Position numbers and translations under genes: made by a program. From IMG/VR virus record IMGVR_UViG_3300045988_181578: a stretch of 42,779 bases of DNA; one strand, written 5' to 3'. The stretch is from a virus. Positions within the stretch are counted from its first letter, which is position 1, and the number at the start of each line of letters is the position of its first letter. The notes below the pieces were generated by a model. The model did not search any database, was not told the DNA's origin, and saw nothing but the letters and a program-made list of their open reading frames with translations. Shown here piece after piece: positions 3,511-42,779 of the stretch.

Positions 3511-3824
3511 ATCAACGCCTTTTTGTTATCAGAAAAATACTTCAAAATGTTTAATTTGTCATCCATTGTCATATTTTGCGCCCGCATACGAACGTCAAAA
3601 ATCGCGTTGTCAGCAAGTCCGAACATTTCTGGGTGGTGTGATATGAAACGTTCCTCGAAAGTCATTGTGCGCATTGTTTCCGCCGCGCGAACGCCAAAAT
3701 ACTTTTTAAGCTTTTCACGATACGCTTTTAAAGCGTTGGCGCGCGCAGTTTCTTTATCCAGTCCGCTCGCTTCTTCAAAAGCACGGTATTCAAAATAAAA
3801 AGCCCGAATTTCTTTAAATCTCAT
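3507..3824 (-). CDS. hypothetical protein
   Basis: 105-aa ORF inside the co-directional early operon. It overlaps the upstream helicase gene by 11 nt. Confidence 0.45.
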   Translation of the reverse strand: MRFKEIRAFYFEYRAFEEASGLDKETARANALKAYREKLKKYFGVRAAETMRTMTFEERFISHHPEMFGLADNAIFDVRMRAQNMTMDDKLNILKYFSDNKKALI

Positions 3825-4722
3825 TCCGCAATTCCTTTATTTCCGACCCCGTATAATTCACGGAAAGGACTTCGTAAGCGTCTTCATACTGCCCGCGCTT
3901 CAAGTCATAGTACAGGCGCGCCGCTTCGTTTCTAAAGCCACCGAATCGGTTTTTACGGATACAACAAAACGTCGCCTTGCGCGCACTTGTAGTTGACAGC
4001 TCATTCATTTCGTCATCGGGCGCAAACATAATAACAACCGTTGCTTCCTTAACCTTATTTGAGCTTCCGATAAATTCATCCATGGACGGGATTTTGAAAA
4101 GCTTTTGCCCAAACATCGGCTTACGCAAATGCGATATAGCAACGACCGCCATTTTCGTTTCATCCTGCACTTGCCGAATCGTCTTCATCAGCATTGTTTG
4201 GTGGATGTTGTCGTTCAAGTCGTAAGCGTCTTTTTCGACATAATCCAAGTGGTCAATAATCAGCAATTCGCAACCCGCTTCTTTTTCTTTCAGCATAGCA
4301 TCGACAAGCTTTTCGATTGTGAAATTCGGTTGTCTGTGAAAAACGTGCAAGCCTTTAAACGCCACATCCATTGCCGAGTCGATTTCGTTCACGATATCTT
4401 CAGTCATCAAACTGTTTGCACCGCCCTGCATAAACGCGCGTTCGGAAATGTCATAGCGTTTCGTCAGTTCAAGAAACTTCAAATACCCGACGTGCATTTC
4501 AAGGTCGTCTTCAAAGTTCTCAAGCGAAAACAGGGACACTTTGCACCGATTACGGTTTTTAAGCGCGATACTGTTTGCGATTGTGGATTTTCCCGCGCCG
4601 CTTCGGCTTCCGATTAAAATCAAATCGCCTTTCCCGATGCCGTACAGCGTCTTGTCGAGGTAATTGATTCCGAAAACGCCTACATTTTTGTTGGAATTGA
4701 CTCCCGAAAAATATGTTGTCAT
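3814..4722 (-). CDS. DnaB-like helicase C-terminal (RecA-fold ATPase) domain protein
   Basis: Walker A GSRSGAGKST, Walker B LLIIDHLD, and ISHLRK. ATGA overlap with the replisome-organiser gene. Confidence 0.8.
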   Translation of the reverse strand: MTTYFSGVNSNKNVGVFGINYLDKTLYGIGKGDLILIGSRSGAGKSTIANSIALKNRNRCKVSLFSLENFEDDLEMHVGYLKFLELTKRYDISERAFMQGGANSLMTEDIVNEIDSAMDVAFKGLHVFHRQPNFTIEKLVDAMLKEKEAGCELLIIDHLDYVEKDAYDLNDNIHQTMLMKTIRQVQDETKMAVVAISHLRKPMFGQKLFKIPSMDEFIGSSNKVKEATVVIMFAPDDEMNELSTTSARKATFCCIRKNRFGGFRNEAARLYYDLKRGQYEDAYEVLSVNYTGSEIKELRNEI

Positions 4723-5471
4723 TTCTCAAGCTCCTGTTCAATTATTTGTTTAAGCCGTGTTCGCGCCCTCTGGATAAAGAACTCGTCCCCCTGTGCTTTC
4801 ATCTGTTCCAAATACGCCATTTGGTTTTTAACAGCTTCCCGATTTAAAACGTGGGATATATCTTTGAATGTTCGAGAGTTTCTAAGCCAGTTTCGCCAAG
4901 TTGCTATCCAATCTTTTTTGGTCGCCGTTGCTCCAGTTTTTCCTGCCCAGTAATCTTTGAATGTTTGATACTCTCTTTCTGCCGATTGAAACGGATTCAT
5001 TTTCACCGATTCGGTTTCAAAATCTTTTGGCATTGTTTCATTGAAGTACGGTGAGTTTTCAAAACGGCATCCTTTTGTGATTTCCGTTTTTTCTTTAGAA
5101 ATTTCTTTTTTTAATGTTTCGTTAGAAACATCAGAATCAGATTCAGAATCAGATTCAGAATCAGATTCATAGCGCATTTGCTTGCATTTGGTAGCATTTG
5201 GTAGCATTTGCTTGCATTTGGTAGCATTTGCTTTCCCTCCTAAACTACCAGCGTTTCTGCGCTTTTCACAAACTTTTTCATATTTTTCAGCGTTTTCGTC
5301 AAAGTAATTTTTGAAAGGCAAGAATACGGCTTTCATCAATCCATTTAATTTAGGTTCGACGCCGTTCTGATAGTCTTTAATCGCCAAAAACAAATCGGCG
5401 ATTTGTTCTTTGTTGAGTTCGTCAAGAACTGAAAGCGATTCCGTGTAAATTAAAAATGATTTTTTTTTCAT
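4719..5471 (-). CDS. putative phage replication initiation / replisome organiser protein (DnaD-like C-terminus)
   Basis: N-terminus LFLAIKDYQNG...KRRNAGSLGG is organiser-like; C-terminus FKDYWAGKTGATATKKDWIATWRNWLRN is DnaD/Phg_2220_C-like. It sits next to the helicase gene. RBS gaaagg. Confidence 0.5.
   Translation of the reverse strand: MKKKSFLIYTESLSVLDELNKEQIADLFLAIKDYQNGVEPKLNGLMKAVFLPFKNYFDENAEKYEKVCEKRRNAGSLGGKANATKCKQMLPNATKCKQMRYESDSESDSESDSDVSNETLKKEISKEKTEITKGCRFENSPYFNETMPKDFETESVKMNPFQSAEREYQTFKDYWAGKTGATATKKDWIATWRNWLRNSRTFKDISHVLNREAVKNQMAYLEQMKAQGDEFFIQRARTRLKQIIEQELEK
5139..5240. repeat. short tandem repeats inside the replisome-organiser linker
   Basis: gattcagaatca x3-4 encodes SDSESDSESDSD; gcatttgcttgcatttggta units encode ANATKCKQM x2. 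Confidence 0.8.
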
Positions 5472-26588: not shown

Positions 26589-27451
26589 AAAAGCGTAAAG
26601 TCGTTGTCGAAATTTACCGCTTGTCCGCTGATAAAAAACAGCGGGATGTTTTGCTGACGCTTGAAGATTTATCAGTTCGTTTCAAAATCACAAAATATCG
26701 CGGAACTGTTTTTTCGCAAGGCACAATATCGGTGTGCGGATTGTCGAAAGAACATATAAACCATTTGACGACGTTTCAGGGGGCGTATCTTGCAACGCAA
26801 AACGATAAATATATTCGTCTGACAGCAGGATACGTTGAAGAAAATGACGACGAGTCGGCGGTAATTTTTGACGGATTGATTTTTAAAGCAATTCCGACAA
26901 TGCCGCCTGATATTTGGCTGAATATGGAAGTGTTTTCAAACTTAGACCTTGTTTCTAAAGAAAAAGAAATATCCATTGAAAACACCACGTCGAAGAGCCT
27001 TATAAAAAAAATAGCCGCAGAATTTTCTGTTCCTGTCGTTTTGGATTATTCAACATCCAACAAAACAATAGACAAGTTTTATTTTAAGGGGAATCTTCCG
27101 TCATTAGAAAGAAAACTCTATGAAATATTCAAAAACGACAAGATTTTTTATTATGAACAAGGAAAAATCATTGTTGACGACTGGGAAAAAACAAATCGAC
27201 CGAGCATTCCGTATTTAATCAATGTTGAAAACGGTATGGTTTTTATGCCGAAGCCGACGACTTACGGATGCGACGTTTCAATTTTCCTAAACCCGTTTTT
27301 TCAGATGTCGCAAATCGCACAAATAGAATCGACGCAAATCCCGTCGTTAAACGGCGAATATACTGTTTATATGTTGACACACGAGGGGACTTCCCGCGAC
27401 GTTCCTTTTTACACGCACCTTTCTTGTATGAGGATTCCGAGCAATGTCTGA
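26585..27451 (+). CDS. putative baseplate hub / tail protein
   Basis: 288 aa; ATGA coupling. Confidence 0.35.
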   Translation: MKKRKVVVEIYRLSADKKQRDVLLTLEDLSVRFKITKYRGTVFSQGTISVCGLSKEHINHLTTFQGAYLATQNDKYIRLTAGYVEENDDESAVIFDGLIFKAIPTMPPDIWLNMEVFSNLDLVSKEKEISIENTTSKSLIKKIAAEFSVPVVLDYSTSNKTIDKFYFKGNLPSLERKLYEIFKNDKIFYYEQGKIIVDDWEKTNRPSIPYLINVENGMVFMPKPTTYGCDVSIFLNPFFQMSQIAQIESTQIPSLNGEYTVYMLTHEGTSRDVPFYTHLSCMRIPSNV

Positions 27452-28139
27452 AACTTCAATCGTAAATGCAAACCCGCTTTCAACTGAAAGCGAACTTTTC
27501 GCACTTCAAGATTTATTACGTTCGATAAGCGCACAAATAAGCGTCTGTATGCCCGCTGTCGTTCAAGAGTATGATAGAGCATCTAATACTGTCAAAGTGC
27601 GCCCAGCGGTCAAATATATACGGAATGACGGCATTACGGAAAGCCGACAGATTATCACAATGCCCGTTGTCCGTTTCGGGAGCGCATTTACGGTTTCATT
27701 TTCTTTGAAACAAGGGGATTTGGGACTGATTTTTTTCGCCGACCGCGATTGCTATAATTTTTTGAAGACACTCTCCGAAGCCGACCCGAATACCAGACGA
27801 GTCCACGCCGTTGAAGACGGTTTCTTTTTGCCGTTCAATCTTTCGACGGCAGATAATACAACGGCAGACGTTTCAATTCAAAATTCGGACGGCACGGTCA
27901 AAGTTGAAATGACGGCGGAAAAATTAACGCTCACGAATGGCGAAAGCACGCTTGTTTTTGACGCGAACGGCGCGACCGTTTCTAAAAATGTTTCTGTTTC
28001 GGGAAATACCGAATCGGCAACGTATTCAACGGGCGGCGTTGCGGGACTGACAACGCAGGTTGTTGAAATTCACGATGTTTCAGGCGCGACAAAGCAAACA
28101 CTTACTTTTACAAACGGACTTTTGACGCAGGTTTCTTAA
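27444..28139 (+). CDS. baseplate central spike (P2 gpV / Mu gp45-like)
   Basis: N-terminal OB-like MPAVVQEYDRASNTVKVRPAV...MPVVRFGS...KQGDLGLIFFADRD followed by a Thr/Ser-rich beta region. Confidence 0.5.
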   Translation: MSETSIVNANPLSTESELFALQDLLRSISAQISVCMPAVVQEYDRASNTVKVRPAVKYIRNDGITESRQIITMPVVRFGSAFTVSFSLKQGDLGLIFFADRDCYNFLKTLSEADPNTRRVHAVEDGFFLPFNLSTADNTTADVSIQNSDGTVKVEMTAEKLTLTNGESTLVFDANGATVSKNVSVSGNTESATYSTGGVAGLTTQVVEIHDVSGATKQTLTFTNGLLTQVS

Positions 28140-28204
28140 TCCTTGCTTATCGGGCGATTATCCGATAAAATTAGGACATTATTTTTTGAAAGGAAACAAA
28201 CCTT

Positions 28205-28645
28205 ATGAAAGCTTACAGATATAATTCTGAAAACAAAAAGTATGAAGGAGAAACGACGTGTCAAATCGACCCATTGGAATCGAAACTGGCAGGCAAAGAA
28301 GTTTACTTGTTGCCCGCGGATTGTACCTATGAAGAACCTCTGCCCGAAAAAGAGGGTTTTGACATCATCTTCAACGGTACGGCTTGGGAATACAAGGAAG
28401 AAGAAAAGAAACCCGAAGACGAGCCTTACGTTCCGACTGAAAAGGAAAAGACCCAATGGGCTATCTGGAAATTGAAGTCCAAGCTCGCCGAAACGGATTA
28501 CAAAGTGTTAAAATGCACCGAAGCGTCGTTGTGCGGACAAGAATTGCCGTATGATTTAGATGCCGTTGTTTCCGAGCGCGACGGGTGGCGGTCTCAGATT
28601 AACGAGCTTGAGGAAAAGCTCAAGACGATTAAAGAATCCGAATAA
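28205..28645 (+). CDS. hypothetical protein (acidic, possible fibre-assembly or accessory protein)
   Basis: RBS gaaagga. Followed by a terminator. Confidence 0.45.
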   Translation: MKAYRYNSENKKYEGETTCQIDPLESKLAGKEVYLLPADCTYEEPLPEKEGFDIIFNGTAWEYKEEEKKPEDEPYVPTEKEKTQWAIWKLKSKLAETDYKVLKCTEASLCGQELPYDLDAVVSERDGWRSQINELEEKLKTIKESE

Positions 28646-28651
28646 GAAAGG

Positions 28652-28677
28652 GGCGGGATTTTTCCCGCCTTTTTAAT
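28652..28677 (+). terminator. rho-independent terminator
   Basis: Stem ggcggga / tcccgcc with loop ttttt, then tttttaat. Confidence 0.6.
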
Positions 28678-29276
28678 ATGACTGTTTACGCATATTTACG
28701 GGTGTCATCTGTTTCTCAAGACGAACAAAATCAGCGGCAAGGTGTGGATGCTAAAGCCGTTGCTTTGAATGTTCACATCGACAAATACATTGTTGACAAA
28801 GTTTCGGGGACAAAAGAGCCGAAGCTCCGTAATCTTGGAAGCCTTGCCCGACGTTTGAAATCGGGCGATGTTGTTATTGTTTCGGAGTTGTCCCGCCTGT
28901 CCCGCCGTATATTCACGCTTTGCCGACTATTTGAAGACTTGCTTGAAAAGGGCGTTCGTGTTTACTCGGTGAAAGAAAACTTTGTTCTTGATGATTCGCC
29001 GCAGTCGAAAATGCTGATATTTTGTTTTGGGATGTCCGCTGAAATTGAACAACGTATGATTTCTGCTCGGACGCGGGAAGCTTTGGCGTATCGTAAACAA
29101 CAGGGCATCAAATTAGGACGTCCAGTAGGCGCAAAGACGAAAAAGCATAAGTTAGATGTTTACGCCGAAAAAATCGCCCTGTGGCTAAAAAAGGCGTTTC
29201 GCGCAGAAAGATTGCAAAACGGTGCAAGGTGTGTGAAAAAACGCTTCGCAAGTGGTTGCGTAAAACGAACGTTTAA
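28678..29276 (+). CDS. Gin/Hin/Cin-family serine DNA invertase; the HTH domain lies in the -1 frame after the A-run at 29187-29193
   Basis: YAYLRVSSVSQDEQNQRQ (Ser nucleophile), DKVSGTKEPKLRNLGSLARRLKSGDVVIVSELSRLSRR and MISARTREALAYRKQQGIKLGRP match the Gin catalytic domain. The -1 frame encodes KKGVSRRKIAKRCKVCEKTLRKWLRKTNV*, which matches the Gin HTH GIPRKQVALIYDVALSTLYKK. The 0 frame instead reads through into fibre cassette V2 (track ORF 28678..29571). Confidence 0.75.
29187..29193 (+). other. A_AAA_AAG heptamer at the invertase catalytic-domain/HTH junction (candidate -1 slippery site, or a homopolymer indel)
   Basis: cta aaa aag in the 0 frame. A -1 slip yields LWLKK-GVSRRKIAKR..., the exact frame that encodes the HTH. 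Confidence 0.5.
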
Positions 29277-29291
29277 TCTGCCGAACTTTAA
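29266..29291 (+). other. inversion crossover site A (core AACGTTTAATCTGCCGAAC)
   Basis: One of four copies of the about 19-bp core AACGTTTAAYSTGCCGAAY. Overlaps the invertase stop and the start of cassette V2. Confidence 0.55.
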
Positions 29292-29571
29292 TGGCAAAAC
29301 GGTGTGGCAACGAACAGATCATCAAGTTGGAATTCCGACTGTAGGTCAACTGCCGAATATTACGGGTGGGGTAAATATAGACCACGCAAACCTTCTAAAT
29401 GCGTTTGGGTGCTGTACCGCCGATTCTAATATAGGGCAATACTATGGTACGCAGTTAGAAAAACACCTGCAAAGATTGTTGATTGACGCTTCTAAATCAT
29501 CGTCAATTTATCAAAACGTTAATCTTGTCGTTCCAGCAAACAATTCTGTTGTGTTTTGTATACGATACTAA
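29266..29571 (+). other. silent tail-fibre C-terminal cassette V2 (TFNLPNFNGKTVWQ ... FCIRY*)
   Basis: Homologous to the C-terminal 112 aa of the expressed fibre (FN.PN.N, LPNITG, ASKSSSIY, VVP, FCIRY). Has no start codon of its own. Convergent with, and abutting, the fibre gene 3' end. Confidence 0.7.
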
Positions 29572-30500
29572 TATCTGATGCAAAAATGTATCACCCCAGA
29601 TGCAGGGACGACTTGCGTTTCTCCGTCTTTATAAATTGAACTTGAGCGCGACGCATTAAAATCTTGAGCTGTTTGTCCATCCCATACGTACGTCAAAGTA
29701 CAAGCCAAACCACCACCATCCTTATAAGTTCCGGTGTTTATAGCACCAGTTCCATTATACAAAACAGGGCGCCTACTATCTTGACTTGTACCTTGAGCTG
29801 TCCAACTGGCGGTGATATTTGGTAACCTACCAGCCAGTATTGTTCCAATAGAAAGCGTACTAGATTGAAACACCGTTTTATTGTTAAGATTCGGCACATT
29901 AAACGTTGTATTTCCGTCCCCTGCACCCCACGTTGTCCCGATGACATTGAACAGACGCGCGTAAGTGATGCGGGAAATAGCCGCGCCGTTGCAAATCAGA
30001 TAACCGTCGGGAGCGTCATTTGCAGGCCAAGTGATAATTATTCCTGTCGGAAGTCCCGCGTCAATAAAAGCCCAATGCACGCCGTCAAGATATTCGGGAT
30101 TTGTTAAAAAGTTAAACGTGTTGTTTTCGACAAGGGAATAAACCGCCGTCGGTTTTCCGCCGACAATCGCCCACAACAAAGCCCCCTGCGGATACCCGCC
30201 GATAGCGTCTGAAACTGCTTGATTGAACGAATATGTACCGCCGTTTTGAGCGAAGAAGTTATGTTGCGAAACGGTGTTAAAAAGACCGTTAAAGTCTTGC
30301 TGTTTCGGGGGAAGTCCCGATACCTGTGTCGGCAAAGGATTTTCAATTACGGGCATACGGGTAATGGCAGGAAAACCCTCTTGGAAAGATGCACGATTCG
30401 TCCCTGTTGCGCCGTTCGGAATAGCGTTAATGTTTTCGCTTGTCGCCTGTGCGGCAATCGGTTGTGGGATTACGACGGGGGTTGTATTTGAAGTCGCCAT
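29568..30500 (-). CDS. tail fibre protein (P2 gpH / Mu S-like); constant N-terminal part plus variable C-terminal cassette V1
   Basis: C-terminus TFNVPNLNNKTVFQ...ASRSSSIYKDGETQVVPASGVIHFCIRY. RBS aggag. Gene order W-J-I-H. Confidence 0.7.
   Translation of the reverse strand: MATSNTTPVVIPQPIAAQATSENINAIPNGATGTNRASFQEGFPAITRMPVIENPLPTQVSGLPPKQQDFNGLFNTVSQHNFFAQNGGTYSFNQAVSDAIGGYPQGALLWAIVGGKPTAVYSLVENNTFNFLTNPEYLDGVHWAFIDAGLPTGIIITWPANDAPDGYLICNGAAISRITYARLFNVIGTTWGAGDGNTTFNVPNLNNKTVFQSSTLSIGTILAGRLPNITASWTAQGTSQDSRRPVLYNGTGAINTGTYKDGGGLACTLTYVWDGQTAQDFNASRSSSIYKDGETQVVPASGVIHFCIRY
29887..29910 (-). other. inversion crossover site B inside the fibre gene at the constant/variable boundary
   Basis: Minus-strand acaACGTTTAATGTGCCGAATct encodes TFNVPN. 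Inverted relative to sites A and C. Confidence 0.55.
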
Positions 30501-31118
30501 TTATTTAACTCCTATGCTGTCTACGACAAAAACGCCGTTGTTAAAAGGTTTAAGTCCGCTTCCCTCGAAACCGAACGTTTCTTGCGGCGGAATCGGTGTA
30601 ATGGATGTAATTTTAACGCCAGACGGGCGCGGCAGAAAATCGTTTAATTGCAAAACGATTTCTTCTTCCGCCGTCGGAAAAAAGTCTAAAATGTACGTTA
30701 TGGACATATTCAAATTGTCCTGCACATAAGACTTGTTGTCTGGATGATTGAAGAAAATTTGCCGAATAAACGTGTTTACGTTTGAAAACGTCGGCGCGTG
30801 AGAGTTCTTATACAGTTTTGCGTTCAAAAGCAGTCTGTAAGACTCCGTCGGAATGGGGACAAGTTCGCCGTCGGCGTTCGTATACAAAGGACGTTCCAAA
30901 TTCAATAAAAATCCCCACAACGTCAAACCAAATTCGTTTGCCGTCTGAATGTTCAAAACGTCATCAATCCAGCGTTCCCAAAAATCAGAAACGGCATCAT
31001 CGTAAAAGTTTTGTTTAAACGCAATAAGGGCGTTAAAGTTCGGCGCGTTGTCGTACTGCCAAAGGATAACGTTTCTTGCATTAAAAGCGATTTCTTTTGC
31101 GACATCGTAATTCTTCAT
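30501..31118 (-). CDS. baseplate/tail protein (P2 gpI-like)
   Basis: Position between the J-like and fibre genes; ATGA coupling. 205 aa. Confidence 0.45.
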   Translation of the reverse strand: MKNYDVAKEIAFNARNVILWQYDNAPNFNALIAFKQNFYDDAVSDFWERWIDDVLNIQTANEFGLTLWGFLLNLERPLYTNADGELVPIPTESYRLLLNAKLYKNSHAPTFSNVNTFIRQIFFNHPDNKSYVQDNLNMSITYILDFFPTAEEEIVLQLNDFLPRPSGVKITSITPIPPQETFGFEGSGLKPFNNGVFVVDSIGVK

Positions 31119-32320
31119 TGAACCACCACCGAAACATCATCAGACGTTAAAAGCGCGCATTGTTTTGAAAGGATTGAAACGCCACTGACTGTTTGTTGTT
31201 CGCCTTTTTTACCCGCAACGACTTGAACAATTTTAATTTCAGGGATTGCTTCGGAAACGGCGGAAGCGATTTCAAAAGTGTTTACATTATTCCCGATTAC
31301 AAGCCCCTCGACGTTCGGATTTTTGTTTTGCGCCCAAGCGACAACGGCATCTTTTACATCTTGATAAATGTTGTTTCCCTGATATTTGTTCAAAGAAACC
31401 GTGATTGTCGTTTGAACTTCGATATATTCGGGGCGATTGAACGTAACTTGGACGTATCGGTCGTTTATCGCATCGTATCCTAAACCTGTTTCGGACTGTC
31501 CGCTAATCGCCGTGTATCCGCATCCGACGTTTTTTGCGGACGCAATGGCATTGTAAATGTCTTGAACAAGTCCGCCGTCCACAATGATGCACAAAGAGTG
31601 CGGAGCAACAGAAACACCGTTAACTTCAACTGCCGTGTCGTTATAATTCTCGTAATACCAAGAAGATATAACGCCGTTTACGCCCGACAGTTTTCCTTTG
31701 ATAGAATCGTTATATCCGTTCGCTAATTGTTGAGCGTACAAAATACGTTCTCGATAAGAAGAATCGCTTTCTTTTTCATATCCGATAATGGCGGGGTCGG
31801 GATTGTTTATCGTTTCCCACCCCGAAACGCTTGAAACGATTTCCGTTAATGTTCCGACGGGACAAGGAATTTGTCCGAGTTCAACCGACTGAAAATAAAC
31901 TTCCGCCTTGCCGTTTGTGTCCAGTTGAACCGTTCTTTCGCTTTCAAAAACATTTCCGTCCGTTGTCTTTGCTTGTGAACCCACAGGGATAATAGTCCCC
32001 ACAACGCCCGCCAAAGAAACAAGAACTTGCGTCGGTTGCGCATATTTTCGATAGACTAAAACTTTTGCGCCGATTGCGTCCAAAAAATCGCCCGATGCCG
32101 TTTGGATGTTTTGAGAATTTGCCATTAAAGCGACAACGCGGATTACCTGTTGACGCAATAACGTATCGTGTTCGATCAAACGACCCTGCGGCGTTGACGT
32201 TTCAATGGACAAATCCGCCCCGAAAATATCTTTATATTCGTTTTCAACGTCCGTTTTTACGTCGCCTGTATTCGGAATAACAACGCCCGTGGACGTAACA
32301 TAATCGTACAAATCAGCCAT
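31115..32320 (-). CDS. baseplate J-like protein (P2 gpJ / Mu gp47-like)
   Basis: 401 aa. Position W-J-I-H. Confidence 0.6.
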   Translation of the reverse strand: MADLYDYVTSTGVVIPNTGDVKTDVENEYKDIFGADLSIETSTPQGRLIEHDTLLRQQVIRVVALMANSQNIQTASGDFLDAIGAKVLVYRKYAQPTQVLVSLAGVVGTIIPVGSQAKTTDGNVFESERTVQLDTNGKAEVYFQSVELGQIPCPVGTLTEIVSSVSGWETINNPDPAIIGYEKESDSSYRERILYAQQLANGYNDSIKGKLSGVNGVISSWYYENYNDTAVEVNGVSVAPHSLCIIVDGGLVQDIYNAIASAKNVGCGYTAISGQSETGLGYDAINDRYVQVTFNRPEYIEVQTTITVSLNKYQGNNIYQDVKDAVVAWAQNKNPNVEGLVIGNNVNTFEIASAVSEAIPEIKIVQVVAGKKGEQQTVSGVSILSKQCALLTSDDVSVVVQ

Positions 32321-32322
32321 TT

Positions 32323-32667
32323 TTAACCCGCAATCGTTGTTTCACCGTAAACCGTCGAAACGTTCATTTCATATTTTAAAGTGCTGTCTTCAATTCGCAT
32401 TGCAAAATTCACCACAGAATTTACGCCGTTAATCGCTTCAACGTTATTAAAAATCTGTTTTCTAAACAAAAAAACGTCGGGCGGCGAATTGAAAACAGAG
32501 CCAAAATAATCAACGCCGACATTTGTAGCCAACTGACATTCGCTTAAAACAGTCTGAATCCGCTGTTTTATGACCAATGCCAAAGCGTCAATATCAGACA
32601 CCAACGCCAGATTGCCAAGCGCATCTAAATAAACGTCATTGTCCGAATTTGTCGCTATCGTTTTCAT
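32323..32667 (-). CDS. baseplate wedge protein (P2 gpW / GPW_gp25-like)
   Basis: 114 aa. Precedes the J-like gene. RBS aaagg. Confidence 0.5.
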   Translation of the reverse strand: MKTIATNSDNDVYLDALGNLALVSDIDALALVIKQRIQTVLSECQLATNVGVDYFGSVFNSPPDVFLFRKQIFNNVEAINGVNSVVNFAMRIEDSTLKYEMNVSTVYGETTIAG

Positions 32668-32739
32668 TGAACGCCTTTCATTTCGTTAAATCCTATAACA
32701 ATTTGAAATCTTTGTAAAGGCAAAATCACGGGACGAAAA

Positions 32740-32762
32740 ATCAACGTTTAACGTGCCGAATT
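32740..32762 (+). other. inversion crossover site C (AACGTTTAACGTGCCGAAT)
   Basis: Conserved core at the start of cassette V3. Confidence 0.55.
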
Positions 32763-33058
32763 TTAATAACAGAATTCCGCAGGGAAGTGGCAGCCGTGGA
32801 ACGGTCGGTGCGTATTTGTCGGAAAGCTTGCCAAATATCACAGGTACTTTTGGTGTCCCTAAATATGAAATAGTGAATGTAGGAACTGGAGCTTTTACAT
32901 CTACTGTGAATGGAACAGAATATAACATGTCATCACTCGAAGTTAACAGAAATGGGCACTTTTTCTATTTTTCAGCTTCCCGTTCATCTTCTACCTATCA
33001 AGACAATGCACCCGTTCAGCAAGCGGCGACGGTGGTTAATTTCTGCATCCGATATTAG
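32742..33058 (+). other. silent tail-fibre C-terminal cassette V3 (TFNVPNFNNRIPQG ... FCIRY*)
   Basis: GTG-initiated ORF in the track. Shares LPNITG, SASRSSSTY and FCIRY with the fibre C-terminus. Confidence 0.7.
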
Positions 33059-33357
33059 TATTTGATGCAGAAATTAATGTTAATTCCAGACGGTACAACA
33101 AGATTGTCGGAACGTGAGTAGGCGGACGACGAGCGGGATGCGTCAAAATTAAAAGCTCTGTTAGAATTCGTAGTCCCCGTAAGGTGAACATATTGTACGT
33201 CAATTCCGTTTAAAGCAAACGCCCCAGAAGCACTATACCACAAATTTCCACCTTGTTGAACATAGCCTGTTATTTTCGGCAAACTACCATTAAAGGATGT
33301 CCCCACAACCCCACCCTGCCAAACGGTATGATTGGTGGAGTTCGGCACATTAAACGT
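33055..33357 (-). other. silent tail-fibre C-terminal cassette V4 (TFNVPNSTNHTVWQ ... FCIKY*), convergent with V3
   Basis: Shares LPKITG, DASRSSSAY, VVP and FCIKY. A TAG stop lies immediately upstream of the conserved core. Confidence 0.7.
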
Positions 33358-33360
33358 TTT
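33339..33360 (-). other. inversion crossover site D
   Basis: Minus-strand aaAACGTTTAATGTGCCGAACtc. Confidence 0.55.
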
Positions 33361-33531
33361 TTTTGCTTTCCTAAAAAGACTTATTGATAAAAAGAACAGA
33401 TTGTTTTAACCTATAAGTAGTCAAATTTTTATAGATATAACGAAAATGAAAAATTACAACGTGAAAGCCAAGGAATGGCAACCGCTTTCAGACATTATTC
33501 ATGTAAACGTCTTTATAGAGGAAGCAGAATA

Positions 33532-33780: not shown

Positions 33781-34305
33781 ATGATTCAAGCTTTGATTTT
33801 TAGCGTTTTCGGTGCTTTTTTTCGCCGCTGGTTCGGCGGGGGCTTTGGAAAGTTCGGCGACGTTTCGCGTTTTTGGAAATATCTTTCCCTCTCAATCGCT
33901 TTTATCGCCGCTTGGTTTTATCTAAATGGTATTGATTGGACGGCTTTGAAAATGTATGCCGCCCTTGTTTCTTTTATGGTGTTTTGGGCGGTGGGACACG
34001 GGACTTGGTTCGTATACTGGGATGATACGGCGGCGGCAGAGGGGCGAATCCCGCTTATTGATAAAATTGTTTGGTTCTGTATCGGCGTTGATGAATCTCG
34101 GACGTTTTGGGGAAATTGCTTTGGAATGTTTGTCCGATATACGATTACGGCAATTCCCGTTGCAATCTTCACAAGCCCTCTTTTTTTGACCGCTGGCGCG
34201 ATTGTCGCACTTTCCTATGTTCCCGCAGGGTTTAAACAGGATACGCGCCTTGGTGAATGTTTGGCGGGCTTCTTTGTGTTCTTTTTGCTCTGGTGGTGCT
34301 TATGA
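33781..34305 (+). CDS. multi-pass membrane protein (putative holin or lysis accessory protein)
   Basis: 174 aa with 4-5 hydrophobic segments. Lies immediately upstream of and ATGA-coupled to the peptidase gene. Confidence 0.4.
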   Translation: MIQALIFSVFGAFFRRWFGGGFGKFGDVSRFWKYLSLSIAFIAAWFYLNGIDWTALKMYAALVSFMVFWAVGHGTWFVYWDDTAAAEGRIPLIDKIVWFCIGVDESRTFWGNCFGMFVRYTITAIPVAIFTSPLFLTAGAIVALSYVPAGFKQDTRLGECLAGFFVFFLLWWCL

Positions 34306-34670
34306 CGAAAAATTACTTTTCACAAAACGAAGAAGCTTGCCGTTGTTGCGGGTGCGGCGGTCTTGTCCCCGACTTTCGTGAAAAATTAAACAAGGCGCGC
34401 GAACTTGCGGGCATCCCGTTTGTTTTAACGTCTGCTTTTCGGTGTGAAAAATATAATCGAGAAGTCGGCGGTTCGGAAACGTCTTCACACTTGGCGGGTC
34501 TTGCCGTTGATATTAAATGTACGGACGGCTGGAGTCGTTTCAAAATTTTGTCCGCATTATTGGAAGTCGGCTTTTGTCGTATCGGAATCGGAAAAACATT
34601 CATTCACGTTGACGATGACCTAACAAAACCGCAAGGCGTTGTCTGGGATTATTACCGAAAACAGGGATAA
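34302..34670 (+). CDS. peptidase M15-family endolysin (D-Ala-D-Ala carboxypeptidase-like, Zn-dependent)
   Basis: LTSAFRCEKYNREVGGSETSSHLAGLAVDI and a later H/D give the SxHxxGxAxD pattern of Peptidase_M15. Confidence 0.75.
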   Translation: MTKNYFSQNEEACRCCGCGGLVPDFREKLNKARELAGIPFVLTSAFRCEKYNREVGGSETSSHLAGLAVDIKCTDGWSRFKILSALLEVGFCRIGIGKTFIHVDDDLTKPQGVVWDYYRKQG

Positions 34671-40408: not shown

Positions 40409-40687
40409 TCCGATTGAAACACCGTCGTAAAAGTCTTTGTATTCAAAGAACTTTCCGTGGAACTCGTCCCCGTCTTCAATGGCTTTCAAAAATCGCCTTA
40501 AATTGTTAACGGTTGTTCGGACTTCGGAATAAAAGTTATCCCTCCAATACGATTCAAGAGTTTCATAAACTTTAACTCACGATTGGCTTTGTTGCCGTTT
40601 TGCCAGAGACTCCACGCCGATTTTTTGATTGTCGCAATCCTGCTTGTCCGTCGATACCCGCAAATATCCGTACACCGTCATTTTCAT
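40409..40687 (-). pseudogene. decayed serine recombinase (resolvase/invertase/integrase-type) N-terminal remnant
   Basis: MKMTVYGYLRVSTDKQDCDNQKIGVESLAKRQQSQS*VKVYETL...NNLRRFLKAIEDGDEF keeps the Y-x-R-V-S-T-x-x-Q nucleophile motif and the R..L..l..GD block, but has an in-frame TGA and has lost the D..SG and DRLGR motifs. ATGA overlap with the MT-A70 gene stop. Coordinates are approximate. Confidence 0.4.
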
Positions 40688-41238
40688 ATTTCCTTGTCAA
40701 ATTTTTCAGTTTCATTTCCCCAGCAATCCCAACCTACCCGATGCTGACGGGCAAATAGTTCGATTCGTTCCCCGCCGCAAAGACTTTCGATTAAAGAATA
40801 CTGTTCATCAGGTTTTCGGGAATGTTCACGAACAACGCCTTGAATAACATTCCTTGTCGATTTGTTAAGCACATGGGGATGCCCGCGCGTTCCGACAAGC
40901 AACAATTCGGAAGCGCAACGGAAAATATATCCAGTTCCGAAAGCGGTTTTCCCGTTCTTCGTCGTTTTATGCCAAGATGCGCCCGTCTTGTATTTAAACC
41001 CCCAAGCCGCCATTGTTTCCAAAGCTTCGGGCAACATTGGAAACGTCGCCCACATAAAGAGGAAACAGTCTTTGTCGGCAATGTCGATAACAGGCAAAGT
41101 CTTAATGTCATTTGTCGGCATACAAGAATAATGCCCTTCCGCTCCTTTTGCCGTGATTCCTTTTGACGAAAACGTTTTGAACTTCCATGGCGGGTCGGCA
41201 AGAATTACGCCATATTTTTTATTCGGGAACGGAATCAT
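40684..41238 (-). CDS. MT-A70-family N6-adenine DNA methyltransferase
   Basis: ILADPPWKF (DPPW catalytic motif). RBS aagga before MIPFPNKKYG. Confidence 0.8.
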   Translation of the reverse strand: MIPFPNKKYGVILADPPWKFKTFSSKGITAKGAEGHYSCMPTNDIKTLPVIDIADKDCFLFMWATFPMLPEALETMAAWGFKYKTGASWHKTTKNGKTAFGTGYIFRCASELLLVGTRGHPHVLNKSTRNVIQGVVREHSRKPDEQYSLIESLCGGERIELFARQHRVGWDCWGNETEKFDKEI

Positions 41239-41557
41239 TTTTTTTGTCCTTATATTCAAAAGAACGTCCTTTAGTTTTCTTTCCTTTCCCGATTATTTTC
41301 GCAACGGATGTTCCGTATTTTGACATTGCGTCGTGTACCGAATCGAAAACTTCATTTGTTTCCACACAAATAACGCGACGGGAACAGAAGCCCCCTTTAC
41401 GCTTTTTAGACGACGGAATCCGTTTTTTCATTTCTGCAATAACGCCGTCGGGTGTGATTTTTGAACACTTCAACAAAAAGTCGGCAACCGCCTGTTCGGG
41501 CGTATCAAAACCGATAGGCGCAACAGCCGCTTTTTTCAAAACAACAAGATATTTCAT
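41219..41557 (-). CDS. hypothetical protein
   Basis: RBS aagga. Overlaps the MT-A70 gene start by 20 nt. Confidence 0.45.
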   Translation of the reverse strand: MKYLVVLKKAAVAPIGFDTPEQAVADFLLKCSKITPDGVIAEMKKRIPSSKKRKGGFCSRRVICVETNEVFDSVHDAMSKYGTSVAKIIGKGKKTKGRSFEYKDKKNDSVPE

Positions 41558-42004: not shown

Positions 42005-42779
42005 TTACCCGAAAAACTTTTTCAATTCACTGTTTCCATACTGCCCTTCCGTGATTTTAATAATTTCGGAAACAGTCATAGTTTCTTGAATTTTATCGCT
42101 GTTCGTTTCGACAAAATGACGTGTTCCCGCTTCGCAAGCACCCGTGATAACACGATACATTTTAATCGCTTCTTCTTTCGTCAAAACACTGTTTTTATGC
42201 AGATGCTTATACGCAGACGTATCGCGTTTGCCGATTTTGTACATCAAAGAAGCGCGTGCTTCTTCTATTGTTTCCCCGTGAGCGAATCTTTCGCCGTCAG
42301 TAACAATGAATTGAACTTTAAGACCGATTTTGACTTTCCAAACGTTCTTCTTTTGGGAAAGAACTTCGCAGAAAATTCCGTCAAAAATTCTATATTTGCC
42401 CCCTTTCCAAGACAAAAGATTTTCAATGTTGAAAGTCAATTTTTTGACTTTTTCTCTTTCTTTTTGAGTAATGCCCGTGCCGCACAAGTCCAGCGAACCG
42501 CCGACCGTCAGATTGTCGGGCAGTGACGTAATGCCCGTGCCGCTCAAGTTCAGCCAACCGCCGACCGTCAGATTGTTTGGCAGGGACGTAATTTTCGTGT
42601 CGCTCAAATCCAACGAACCGCCGACCGTCAGATTGTCGGGCAGGGACGTAATGCCCGTGTCGCTCAAATCAAACGAACCGCCGACCGTCAGATTGTCGGG
42701 CAGTGACGTAATGCCCGTGTCGCTCAAGTTCAGCCAACCGCCGACCGTCAGATTGTCGGGCAGGGACGTAATGCCCGTG
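42005..42779 (-). CDS. LRR protein, C-terminal part (LRR array plus about 160-aa non-repeat C-terminal domain); continues from the window start
   Basis: Track ORF 42005..42727 carries TSLPDNLTVGGSLDLSDTGI repeats. The frame stays open to the window edge. Confidence 0.6.
   Translation of the reverse strand, partial: TGITSLPDNLTVGGWLNLSDTGITSLPDNLTVGGSFDLSDTGITSLPDNLTVGGSLDLSDTKITSLPNNLTVGGWLNLSGTGITSLPDNLTVGGSLDLCGTGITQKEREKVKKLTFNIENLLSWKGGKYRIFDGIFCEVLSQKKNVWKVKIGLKVQFIVTDGERFAHGETIEEARASLMYKIGKRDTSAYKHLHKNSVLTKEEAIKMYRVITGACEAGTRHFVETNSDKIQETMTVSEIIKITEGQYGNSELKKFFG
42480..42779. repeat. 60-bp tandem repeats (5 copies), the same family as at 1-277
   Basis: Units are identical or near-identical to the window-start array. 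Confidence 0.9.

Follow-up and report, generated by a model that had tools for sequence, protein, structure and literature searches.

Gin of Mu, Cin of P1 and Pin of e14 are small serine invertases with a C-terminal helix-turn-helix (HTH) that drive host-range inversion by swapping tail-fibre C-termini. Each acts on two sites to give two variants, with an own assembly gene (U/U') for each variable part and the constant part outside the invertible DNA. Members of the Gin/Cin/Hin/Pin/Min group are about 60–70% identical and interchangeable; they act on 26-bp sites in inverted orientation, whose dyad symmetry is imperfect and whose 2-bp centre is identical, and rely on a Fis-bound recombinational enhancer close to the 5' end of the invertase gene. 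Cin also uses quasi-sites, and Min has six mix sites. The Min system of p15B is a serine-recombinase shufflon of tail-fibre C-termini (PMC6109161). Multi-cassette systems of gut phages include the Rin shufflon of Bifidobacterium prophages, which relies on a tyrosine recombinase and 11-bp rix sites (PMC6109161), and the tail-fibre shufflon of BV01-like Phocaeicola phages (PMC13596623). In a survey of predicted programmed inversions, genes for tail fibre, tail protein I and DUF2612 were enriched beside the invertible DNA (Milman et al, 2023; PMC9881135). Here we analyse a locus at positions 28,678–33,360 of the IMG/VR virus record IMGVR_UViG_3300045988_181578, a stretch of 42,779 nucleotides that we refer to as the window. 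The locus holds a gene for a small serine recombinase (the invertase), four tail-fibre C-terminal cassettes (V1 to V4) and a module of baseplate genes, divided by four copies (A to D) of a short motif. We read this region as a multiple-inversion (shufflon-type) host-range switch run by the small serine recombinase, with a probability of roughly 0.8.

The locus has in common with Min a serine recombinase gene beside it, more than two sites, a site at the 5' end of each promoterless C-terminal cassette and one constant N-terminus fused to alternative C-termini. The system works like Min but differs in the placement of two cassette banks around an invertible constant operon. In Min the constant part is kept out of the DNA that inverts and all cassettes sit together in a single block, whereas here the two banks flank the constant part, which flips together with three baseplate genes and a leader. 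The initial annotation of the window had assigned the locus the architecture of Mu G, P1 C and p15B Min, a parallel that ends at this point because the constant fibre part, the W, J and I genes and the leader are themselves invertible between the two banks. Further departures from Min are an enzyme only ~31% identical to Gin, one shared tail-fibre-assembly-like (tfa-like) gene in place of one chaperone per cassette, and a crossover within the Collar domain that overlaps the invertase stop codon. Compared with the Gin, Cin and Pin systems, this locus has four sites, cassettes of ~100 amino acids (aa), a single tfa-like gene outside the invertible DNA and, again, its crossover in the Collar domain. 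The Rin and BV01-like systems are also multi-cassette gut-phage shufflons that diversify a receptor-binding protein, with a short asymmetric repeat 5' of each cassette and isomers visible by comparison of related genomes, but in both of them the cassettes make up a single block beside a constant gene that stays in place, and structural operons do not flip. The gene neighbourhood is the one described by Milman et al (2023; PMC9881135). A search of that text found no description of this phage family, of the two-bank layout or of an invertible W-J-I-fibre module, and the two-bank layout was not found in the literature searched.

The source phage is an uncultivated gut myophage of ~42.8 kb, and its host is likely a Clostridia-type Firmicute. 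Because a blastn search of 50,697 GenBank phages with positions 27400–33500 gave zero matches and the J protein matched annotated phages only at <60% identity, there was no annotated relative to lean on. The locus was compared among nine related genomes (among them L001, L009, L010, L011, L032, L033, L034/L035 and L036), found through exact-protein look-ups and one IMG/VR match, in which W-J-I is 87–96% identical to the window. IMG/VR scans with J peptides, the 19-nt core of the motif and the W leader each returned one related contig, L001. The core matches in three other IMG/VR records (L002, L003 and L005) were single Collar-motif matches in unrelated sequences and were set aside. When the fibre constant region was scanned against JGI metagenomes and GTDB genomes, the only finds were L014, a close but short contig, and a fragment of one Clostridiales metagenome-assembled genome.

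Crossover sites and fibre cassettes

The 19-nt core AACGTTTAAYSTGCCGAAY was identified in four exact copies in alternating orientation (+ - + -) and nowhere else in the window. Shuffled sequence is expected to contain 0.02 matches, and none of 100 shuffles reached four. Repeat finding recovered the same site pairs as inverted repeats I1, I2, I4 and I5. The four alternating cores of the initial annotation are confirmed. Every site is composed of an "outer" left half and a cassette-side right half. The outer halves correspond to the end of the invertase gene at site A, the end of the fibre constant region at B, the W leader at C and the edge of the lysis module at D. At site A the left half codes for the invertase C-terminus and the right half for the TFN of V2 in another frame. 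In a logo of 31 sites the right side was invariant (CGTTTAAT.T.CCGAA), and the left side was A-rich and weakly conserved.

Site A (TAAAACG AA CGTTTAA) resembles the hix/gix sequence, AAAACC AA/GA GGTTTT. The hix sites span 26 bp (PMC2427008). Core positions 1–2 are AA at all sites bar two in L011, and this first AA is most likely the crossover centre, as judged from the secondary-site junctions described below and the likeness to hix/gix. A palindromic CG centre was rejected, as core position 4 varies (G/C/A) within single genomes such as L009. The 19-nt core of the initial annotation is not the whole crossover site, as the exchange point maps to the first bases of the core; most likely, the core is mainly the right half-site plus conserved TFNxPN coding. 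In L011 the sites around bank 1 (5173 and 5740) start with GA and those around bank 2 (8594 and 9176; fibre, lysis) start with AA. With GA and AA as crossover dinucleotides, each bank of L011 could flip and its W-J-I-fibre module could not.

Based on this organisation, we propose that the locus consists of three invertible segments: bank 1 (V2/V1), an expression module (leader, W, J, I and the fibre N-terminus) and bank 2 (V3/V4). Any + site would recombine with any - site, and the pairings AxB, BxC, CxD and AxD would always be available because the + - + - pattern survives every inversion. Counting the two positions that a bank can take, and either orientation for both banks and for the module, 16 isomers and four fibre variants would result. 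All four cassettes share one reading frame, entered at TFNxPN, which is the final strand of the Collar domain; exchange takes place most likely at the AA that starts the core.

The fibre protein supports this splice point. Its Collar domain (PF07484, E = 1e-20) covers aa 153–209, and site B codes for the last conserved strand of the domain, TFNVPN; TFNxPN is therefore both a conserved domain strand and part of the recombination site. In the 30-odd fibre homologs compared, conservation exceeds 90% up to about residue 205 and the sequences beyond are unrelated; the change falls exactly at TFNxPN. The cassette frames run from the second base of the core for 100–112 aa and end in FCI(R/K)Y. Alignment of the four cassettes gave 39–41% mutual identity with invariant TFN.PN, LP.IT, AS.SSS.Y and FCI.Y, in line with the shared motifs first noticed in the initial annotation. 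V3 and V4 have no start of their own: only 15–16 open codons precede their sites, and ATG is absent there. A profile search with the cassettes, an approach put forward with the initial annotation, gave no match in Pfam and weak tail-fibre matches only in PHROGs. The AlphaFold2 model of the fibre, built from an alignment of 32 sequences, reached a predicted local distance difference test (pLDDT) score of 52, which is too low to support a search by fold. The cassettes are predicted to have a receptor-binding role.

An assembly artefact, or four ordinary fixed paralogous fibre genes, could in principle give a similar picture, since inverted repeats can confuse assemblers and V3 and V4 start with GTG inside the site. 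However, V3 and V4 have neither an ATG nor a Shine-Dalgarno sequence and lack the N-terminal two thirds of the protein, and cassettes of these classes are found joined to the fibre constant region in related genomes. Independent assemblies also agree: they used k-mers of 119–141, longer than the repeat, and one readable large contig is 99.98% identical to the window with the same arrangement. We regard this explanation as scarcely credible.

Inversion among related genomes

In all nine genomes the motif lies at junctions between a cassette and one of a few outer flanks, namely the invertase 3' end, the fibre constant region, the W leader, the lysis edge and "X", a flank downstream of 208-aa invertases. 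Window positions 29889–32749 are 95% identical to L001 10432–7572 read in the opposite direction, and the DNA to the left and right is colinear, which shows that the B–C segment is inverted with its endpoints at the sites. The W-J-I-fibre module runs in the direction of the structural operon (forward) in L001, L009, L011, L033 and L034/L035 and against it (reversed) in the window, L010, L032 and L036. The two orientations are interspersed on a neighbour-joining tree of W-J-I, where the reversed window is sister to the forward L009 (4.3% divergence) and the reversed L032 to the forward L033 (2.1%), so that at least three flips are required. Bank inversion is seen between L014 and L010. The I gene and fibre constant region of these two are 99.8% identical, the cassette pair is flipped at the site, and a cassette silent in L010 is fused to the fibre in L014, which corresponds to an A x B-type isomer. 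Inversions of the kinds predicted in the initial annotation can thus be traced between lineages.

The cassettes themselves change flanks. V2-class cassettes have invertase, W and X flanks across the genomes (the W or X flank in L011 and L033), and V3-class cassettes have W, lysis, fibre and X flanks. A V3-class cassette is joined to the fibre in L011/P0012, the proteins P0007 and P0008 start with the same V3-like N-terminal motif, and a V4-class cassette is present in L034. With four cassettes in one frame and reshuffled fusions in relatives, the earlier claim that all can be joined in frame to the constant N-terminus holds. Cassette classes have also been exchanged horizontally between lineages.

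Two candidate cases were not used. The P0026 and P0006 contigs, considered as isomers of the window phage, belong to the L001 lineage. The L032 junction of lysis flank to W flank (4740–4765, GCAAAAACGACGGCTTATCG), considered as a site-specific deletion, is imprecise; no cassette bank lies there between the lysis flank and the W leader. Separately, one end (1–50) of the 33-kb contig of L010 lies 31 nt past the crossover site on the W flank; an assembly would be expected to break in this way if mixed isomers were present in the sample.

In three lineages (L034/L035, L001 and L033) recombination has taken place at quasi-sites inside the invertase gene. In L034/L035 the event is an inversion between the lysis-side site and a quasi-site that the window also has (Table 1), and it split the invertase. 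Its N-terminal 125 codons are joined to a cassette at ...GAAATTGAAC AACGT TTAATGTGCC..., and the remainder is found in inverted orientation at a distance of 4 kb, preceded by ...GGAAAACAAAAAC AACGT ATGATTTCTGC...; the two reciprocal junctions, each of them precise, have only AACGT or AACAACGT in common. In L001 (7241–7657) a deletion from about codon 115 of the invertase to the W flank leaves a 138-aa product, P0183, which occurs in 12 contigs. The pattern in L033 (3421–4028, 4607–4760) is complex, with one junction reading CGATATGCC AA CGTTTAAT, and can be explained by two secondary-site inversions. In all secondary events the exchange maps to the left end of the core; they used 5–8 nt of identity only and gave precise reciprocal junctions. 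Together with the frameshift in the window described below, these events disable the invertase in four of nine lineages.

These junctions also bear on whether the rearrangements could instead arise by general homologous recombination or horizontal cassette replacement, the recombinase having some other role. Between some cassettes, identity extends a further 40–50 nt past the core, genes for RecT and a YqaJ-like exonuclease are present in the phage, and horizontal exchange of cassette classes between lineages is clear. Such recombination does not account for breakpoints at the 19-nt motif between otherwise unrelated flanks, nor for the secondary events, whose short identities and precise reciprocal products are typical of conservative site-specific recombination. 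In addition, the recombinase gene adjoins the locus in all relatives compared, and the stop codon of the 199-aa type of invertase lies within a site. We consider this explanation very unlikely and retain site-specific inversion by the serine recombinase.

The invertase and the state of the window phage

The window invertase contains an intact catalytic domain (Resolvase, PF00239; E = 4e-30, aa 3–143) with Ser10 in YLRVSS. The gene spans 599 nt, and the 0-frame open reading frame (ORF) from 28678 codes for 297 aa and reads through site A into V2. The HTH-like C-terminus GVSRRKIAKRCKVCEKTLRKWLRKTNV, followed by the stop, lies in the -1 frame after the run CTAAAAAAGG. Relatives have A7 or TA6 where the window has A6, and nucleotide comparison thereby identifies a 1-nt deletion. 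The -1-frame stop TAA (29274–29276) falls inside site A. In the relatives the invertase occupies one frame and has the same C-terminus in two lengths, 199 aa with the stop in the site or 208 aa with the site 100–200 bp downstream; an intact 199-aa homolog in the protein collection, P0138, is 98% identical. The HTH is therefore part of the same polypeptide as the catalytic domain in these relatives (199/208 aa) and not in the window. The initial annotation of a serine invertase is right as to the Resolvase domain starting at 28678, but the gene is not intact: its HTH can be read in the -1 frame only.

The repaired invertase matched Gin (4m6f, 3uj3) along its length including the HTH, with E ~1e-12. 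Gin is its best PDB match, at ~31% identity over 173 aligned residues, and the Pfam matches to HTH_23/HTH_28 are just sub-threshold. At this identity the enzyme is a small serine recombinase and not demonstrably a member of the Gin/Cin/Min subfamily; of the Gin/Cin/Min-like system first annotated, multiple inversion with a serine recombinase stands and close kinship of the enzyme does not. An enzyme of the window type would catalyse the inversions. A further contrast with Min is the likely host, since Clostridia-type Firmicutes are not known to have Fis. In Hin inversion, Fis acts together with an enhancer (PMC3798978). The stop codon of the 199-aa type lies in the conserved right half-site and is consequently kept in every isomer, with only the last residue varying (V/L/I).

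In the window isomer the expression module has the opposite orientation to the other structural genes, and a fibre::V1 protein is made. The exact W protein is found in nine contigs, the exact I protein in eight and the exact 297-aa fusion ORF in seven contigs of 20–50 kb, and two short contigs have the same W-C-V3 junction as the window. A second serine recombinase, the only other one of this phage family, is represented in the window by a remnant only. Over the first 30 codons this remnant has 93% identity to a Resolvase-domain protein of L009 and L011 that is 308 aa long, after which it jumps to a region resembling the C-terminus of that protein; the intact 308-aa recombinase may be the integrase of the family. 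The frameshift, the single isomer and the missing second recombinase together suggest that the lineage is frozen in the reversed, fibre::V1 state. Loss of an A from the A7 run has put the HTH DNA-binding domain out of frame and has probably locked the lineage. The window copy is thus probably locked in its isomer or switches very rarely, and ongoing switching in this genome is probably weak or absent; some residual activity is possible, given that contigs show majority paths only.

An alternative is that the switch is still active, through -1 slippage on CTA_AAA_AAG, slipped-strand reversion between A6 and A7, or a recombinase of the host or a co-resident element, and that the single isomer is the majority form selected in lytic growth, as for Mu G(+). 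Exactly where the deletion lies, the 0-frame codons CTA AAA AAG (29185–29193) do make up the slippery heptamer A_AAA_AAG; slippage by -1 on it would give back the wild-type protein, with ...LWLKKGVSRR... identical to the relatives. Assemblers report the majority path only, and minority isomers would not appear in contigs. Downstream of the heptamer, however, there is no stimulatory structure or spacing (the fold is not significant, z = -1.3), for which reason ribosomal frameshifting is in our view of minor likelihood. The junctions are identical in all seven large and both short assemblies. A search for chimeric fibre::V2, V3 or V4 proteins found none at >=90% identity (best 68%), a weak negative that we treat as uninformative because the 297-aa ORF, known to exist, was likewise not returned. 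Loss of the invertase is widespread in other lineages, and the occurrence of P0183 in 12 contigs indicates that locked lineages are evidently viable. On balance we judge an active switch in the window phage to be improbable and favour the locked state within an otherwise working inversion system.

Several points weigh against the inversion switch as we propose it. All the evidence for inversion comes from comparison of lineages that are 2–13% diverged, and no alternative isomer of the window phage was found among its seven large and two short contigs. Conservation of the left half-sites is poor and only site A shows convincing dyad symmetry; the AA centre is accordingly one that we infer. The promoter match in the W leader is 9/12, and the promoter scan overall was at chance level. 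A recombinase may also act in trans, yet the window's second serine recombinase is a remnant.

Beyond the switch itself, we put forward a more specific design with three linked features, as a tentative proposal to which we give a little less than even odds. First, the mobile piece would be the expression module with its leader or promoter, the three wedge genes and the fibre N-terminus; as it toggles between the banks, essential structural genes would be routinely turned against the late operon. Second, the site would be dual-coded: one frame would specify the end of the invertase with its stop codon, another the Collar TFN of every cassette. Third, the system would be self-limiting, the invertase gene being repeatedly destroyed through the enzyme's own quasi-site recombination or A7 slippage to give successful "frozen" lineages.

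Surrounding genes and significance

Table 1. Positions of the features discussed (window coordinates unless another genome is named).
Feature	Position	Strand	Remarks
Baseplate hub	26585–27451		Gene annotation
Spike	27444–28139		Gene annotation
tfa-like gene	28205–28645	+	146 aa; PHROG phrog_105 9e-6, phrog_7290 2e-4
GC-rich hairpin	28652–28669		GGCGGGATTTTTCCCGCC then TTTTT; T-run on + strand; between tfa-like gene and invertase
Invertase gene (small serine recombinase)	28678–29276	+	Frameshifted; Resolvase domain; adjoins site A
Quasi-site	29041–29066	+	In invertase gene; GAAATTGAAC AACGT ATGATTTCTGC
A6 run	29187–29192	+	A7 or TA6 in relatives; 1-nt deletion
Site A	29256–29281	+	TTGCGTAAAACG AA CGTTTAATCTGC; likely centre 29268–29269
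Core A	29268–29286	+	19-nt match; pattern search
V2, silent cassette	29269–29571	+	100 aa; TFNLPN...FCIRY, stop
Tail fibre	29568–30500	-	Collar domain aa 153–209
V1, expressed cassette	29568–29906	-	112 aa; fibre C-terminus in window isomer
Core B	29889–29907	-	19-nt match; pattern search
Site B	29894–29919	-	In fibre gene, Collar domain end (GNTTFNVPN); likely centre 29906–29907
Fibre constant N-terminal part	29907–30500	-	~198 aa; homologs >90% conserved
I-like wedge (DUF2612/Phage_Wedge1)	30501–31118	-	Pfam/PHROG
Baseplate_J	31115–32320	-	Pfam/PHROG
W-like gene (sheath initiator)	32323–32667	-	Pfam/PHROG
W leader	32668–32730	-	Upstream of W, inside invertible segment
Site C	32731–32756	+	Likely centre 32743–32744
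Core C	32743–32761	+	19-nt match; pattern search
V3, silent cassette	32744–33058	+	104 aa
V4, silent cassette	33055–33357	-	100 aa
Core D	33340–33358	-	19-nt match; pattern search
Site D	33345–33370	-	Beside lysis module; likely centre 33357–33358
Second serine recombinase remnant	40409–40681	-	Beside MT-A70 methylase (40684–41259)
Repeat-bearing ORF	42005–42727	-	240 aa, no Pfam match; at window end
Split invertase pieces, L034/L035	3783–4174 and 8228–8500		

W, J and I share one invertible segment of 2.8 kb with the fibre N-terminus and the leader, between sites B and C (Table 1). The 62-nt W leader is almost invariant in the nine genomes despite 2–13% divergence of the adjacent coding DNA, and carries a promoter-like TTTACA-17-TAGGAT and an AAAGG ribosome-binding site. 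A putative promoter in this leader would allow the module to be transcribed on its own in either orientation, which would explain the viability of reversed-state phages. Of such phages, the L010 contig is at 238x coverage and the window phage is present in seven large contigs. The tfa-like gene lies outside the invertible DNA and is common to all cassettes; its homologs in relatives show a faint Caudo_TAP_N match. The hairpin between this gene and the invertase may terminate the late operon that precedes it.

One and the same 60-nt tandem repeat is found at the two ends of the window (4.5 copies at 1–269 and 5.2 at 42468–42779), from which the window looks like a complete circular or permuted genome cut within the repeat-bearing ORF. 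Two adjacent short tandem arrays, ATCAGA x6.7 and GCATTTGCTA x5.9, occupy positions 5130–5233, in or beside a DUF6291 gene (4719–5471) and near a DnaB-like helicase gene (3814–4722). These arrays are iteron-like and possibly mark a replication origin. A membrane-like ORF of 174 aa (33781–34305) overlaps the start of the Peptidase_M15 endolysin ORF (34257–34670) by ~49 nt. The endolysin of relatives is called as 122 aa, and its true start is therefore probably further downstream.

Tail-fibre shufflons are among the few ways in which host range can change without mutation, and few have been described outside enterobacterial phages. With its four cassettes and 16 isomers, the system of this gut myophage family, of Firmicute type, is a compact one. 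It offers a large natural library of interchangeable receptor-binding tips of ~100 aa with a fixed TFNxPN splice point, of use in fibre engineering, and a natural series of active and frozen variants in which the decay of an inversion system can be studied. It also indicates that baseplate genes can tolerate flipping relative to the late operon.

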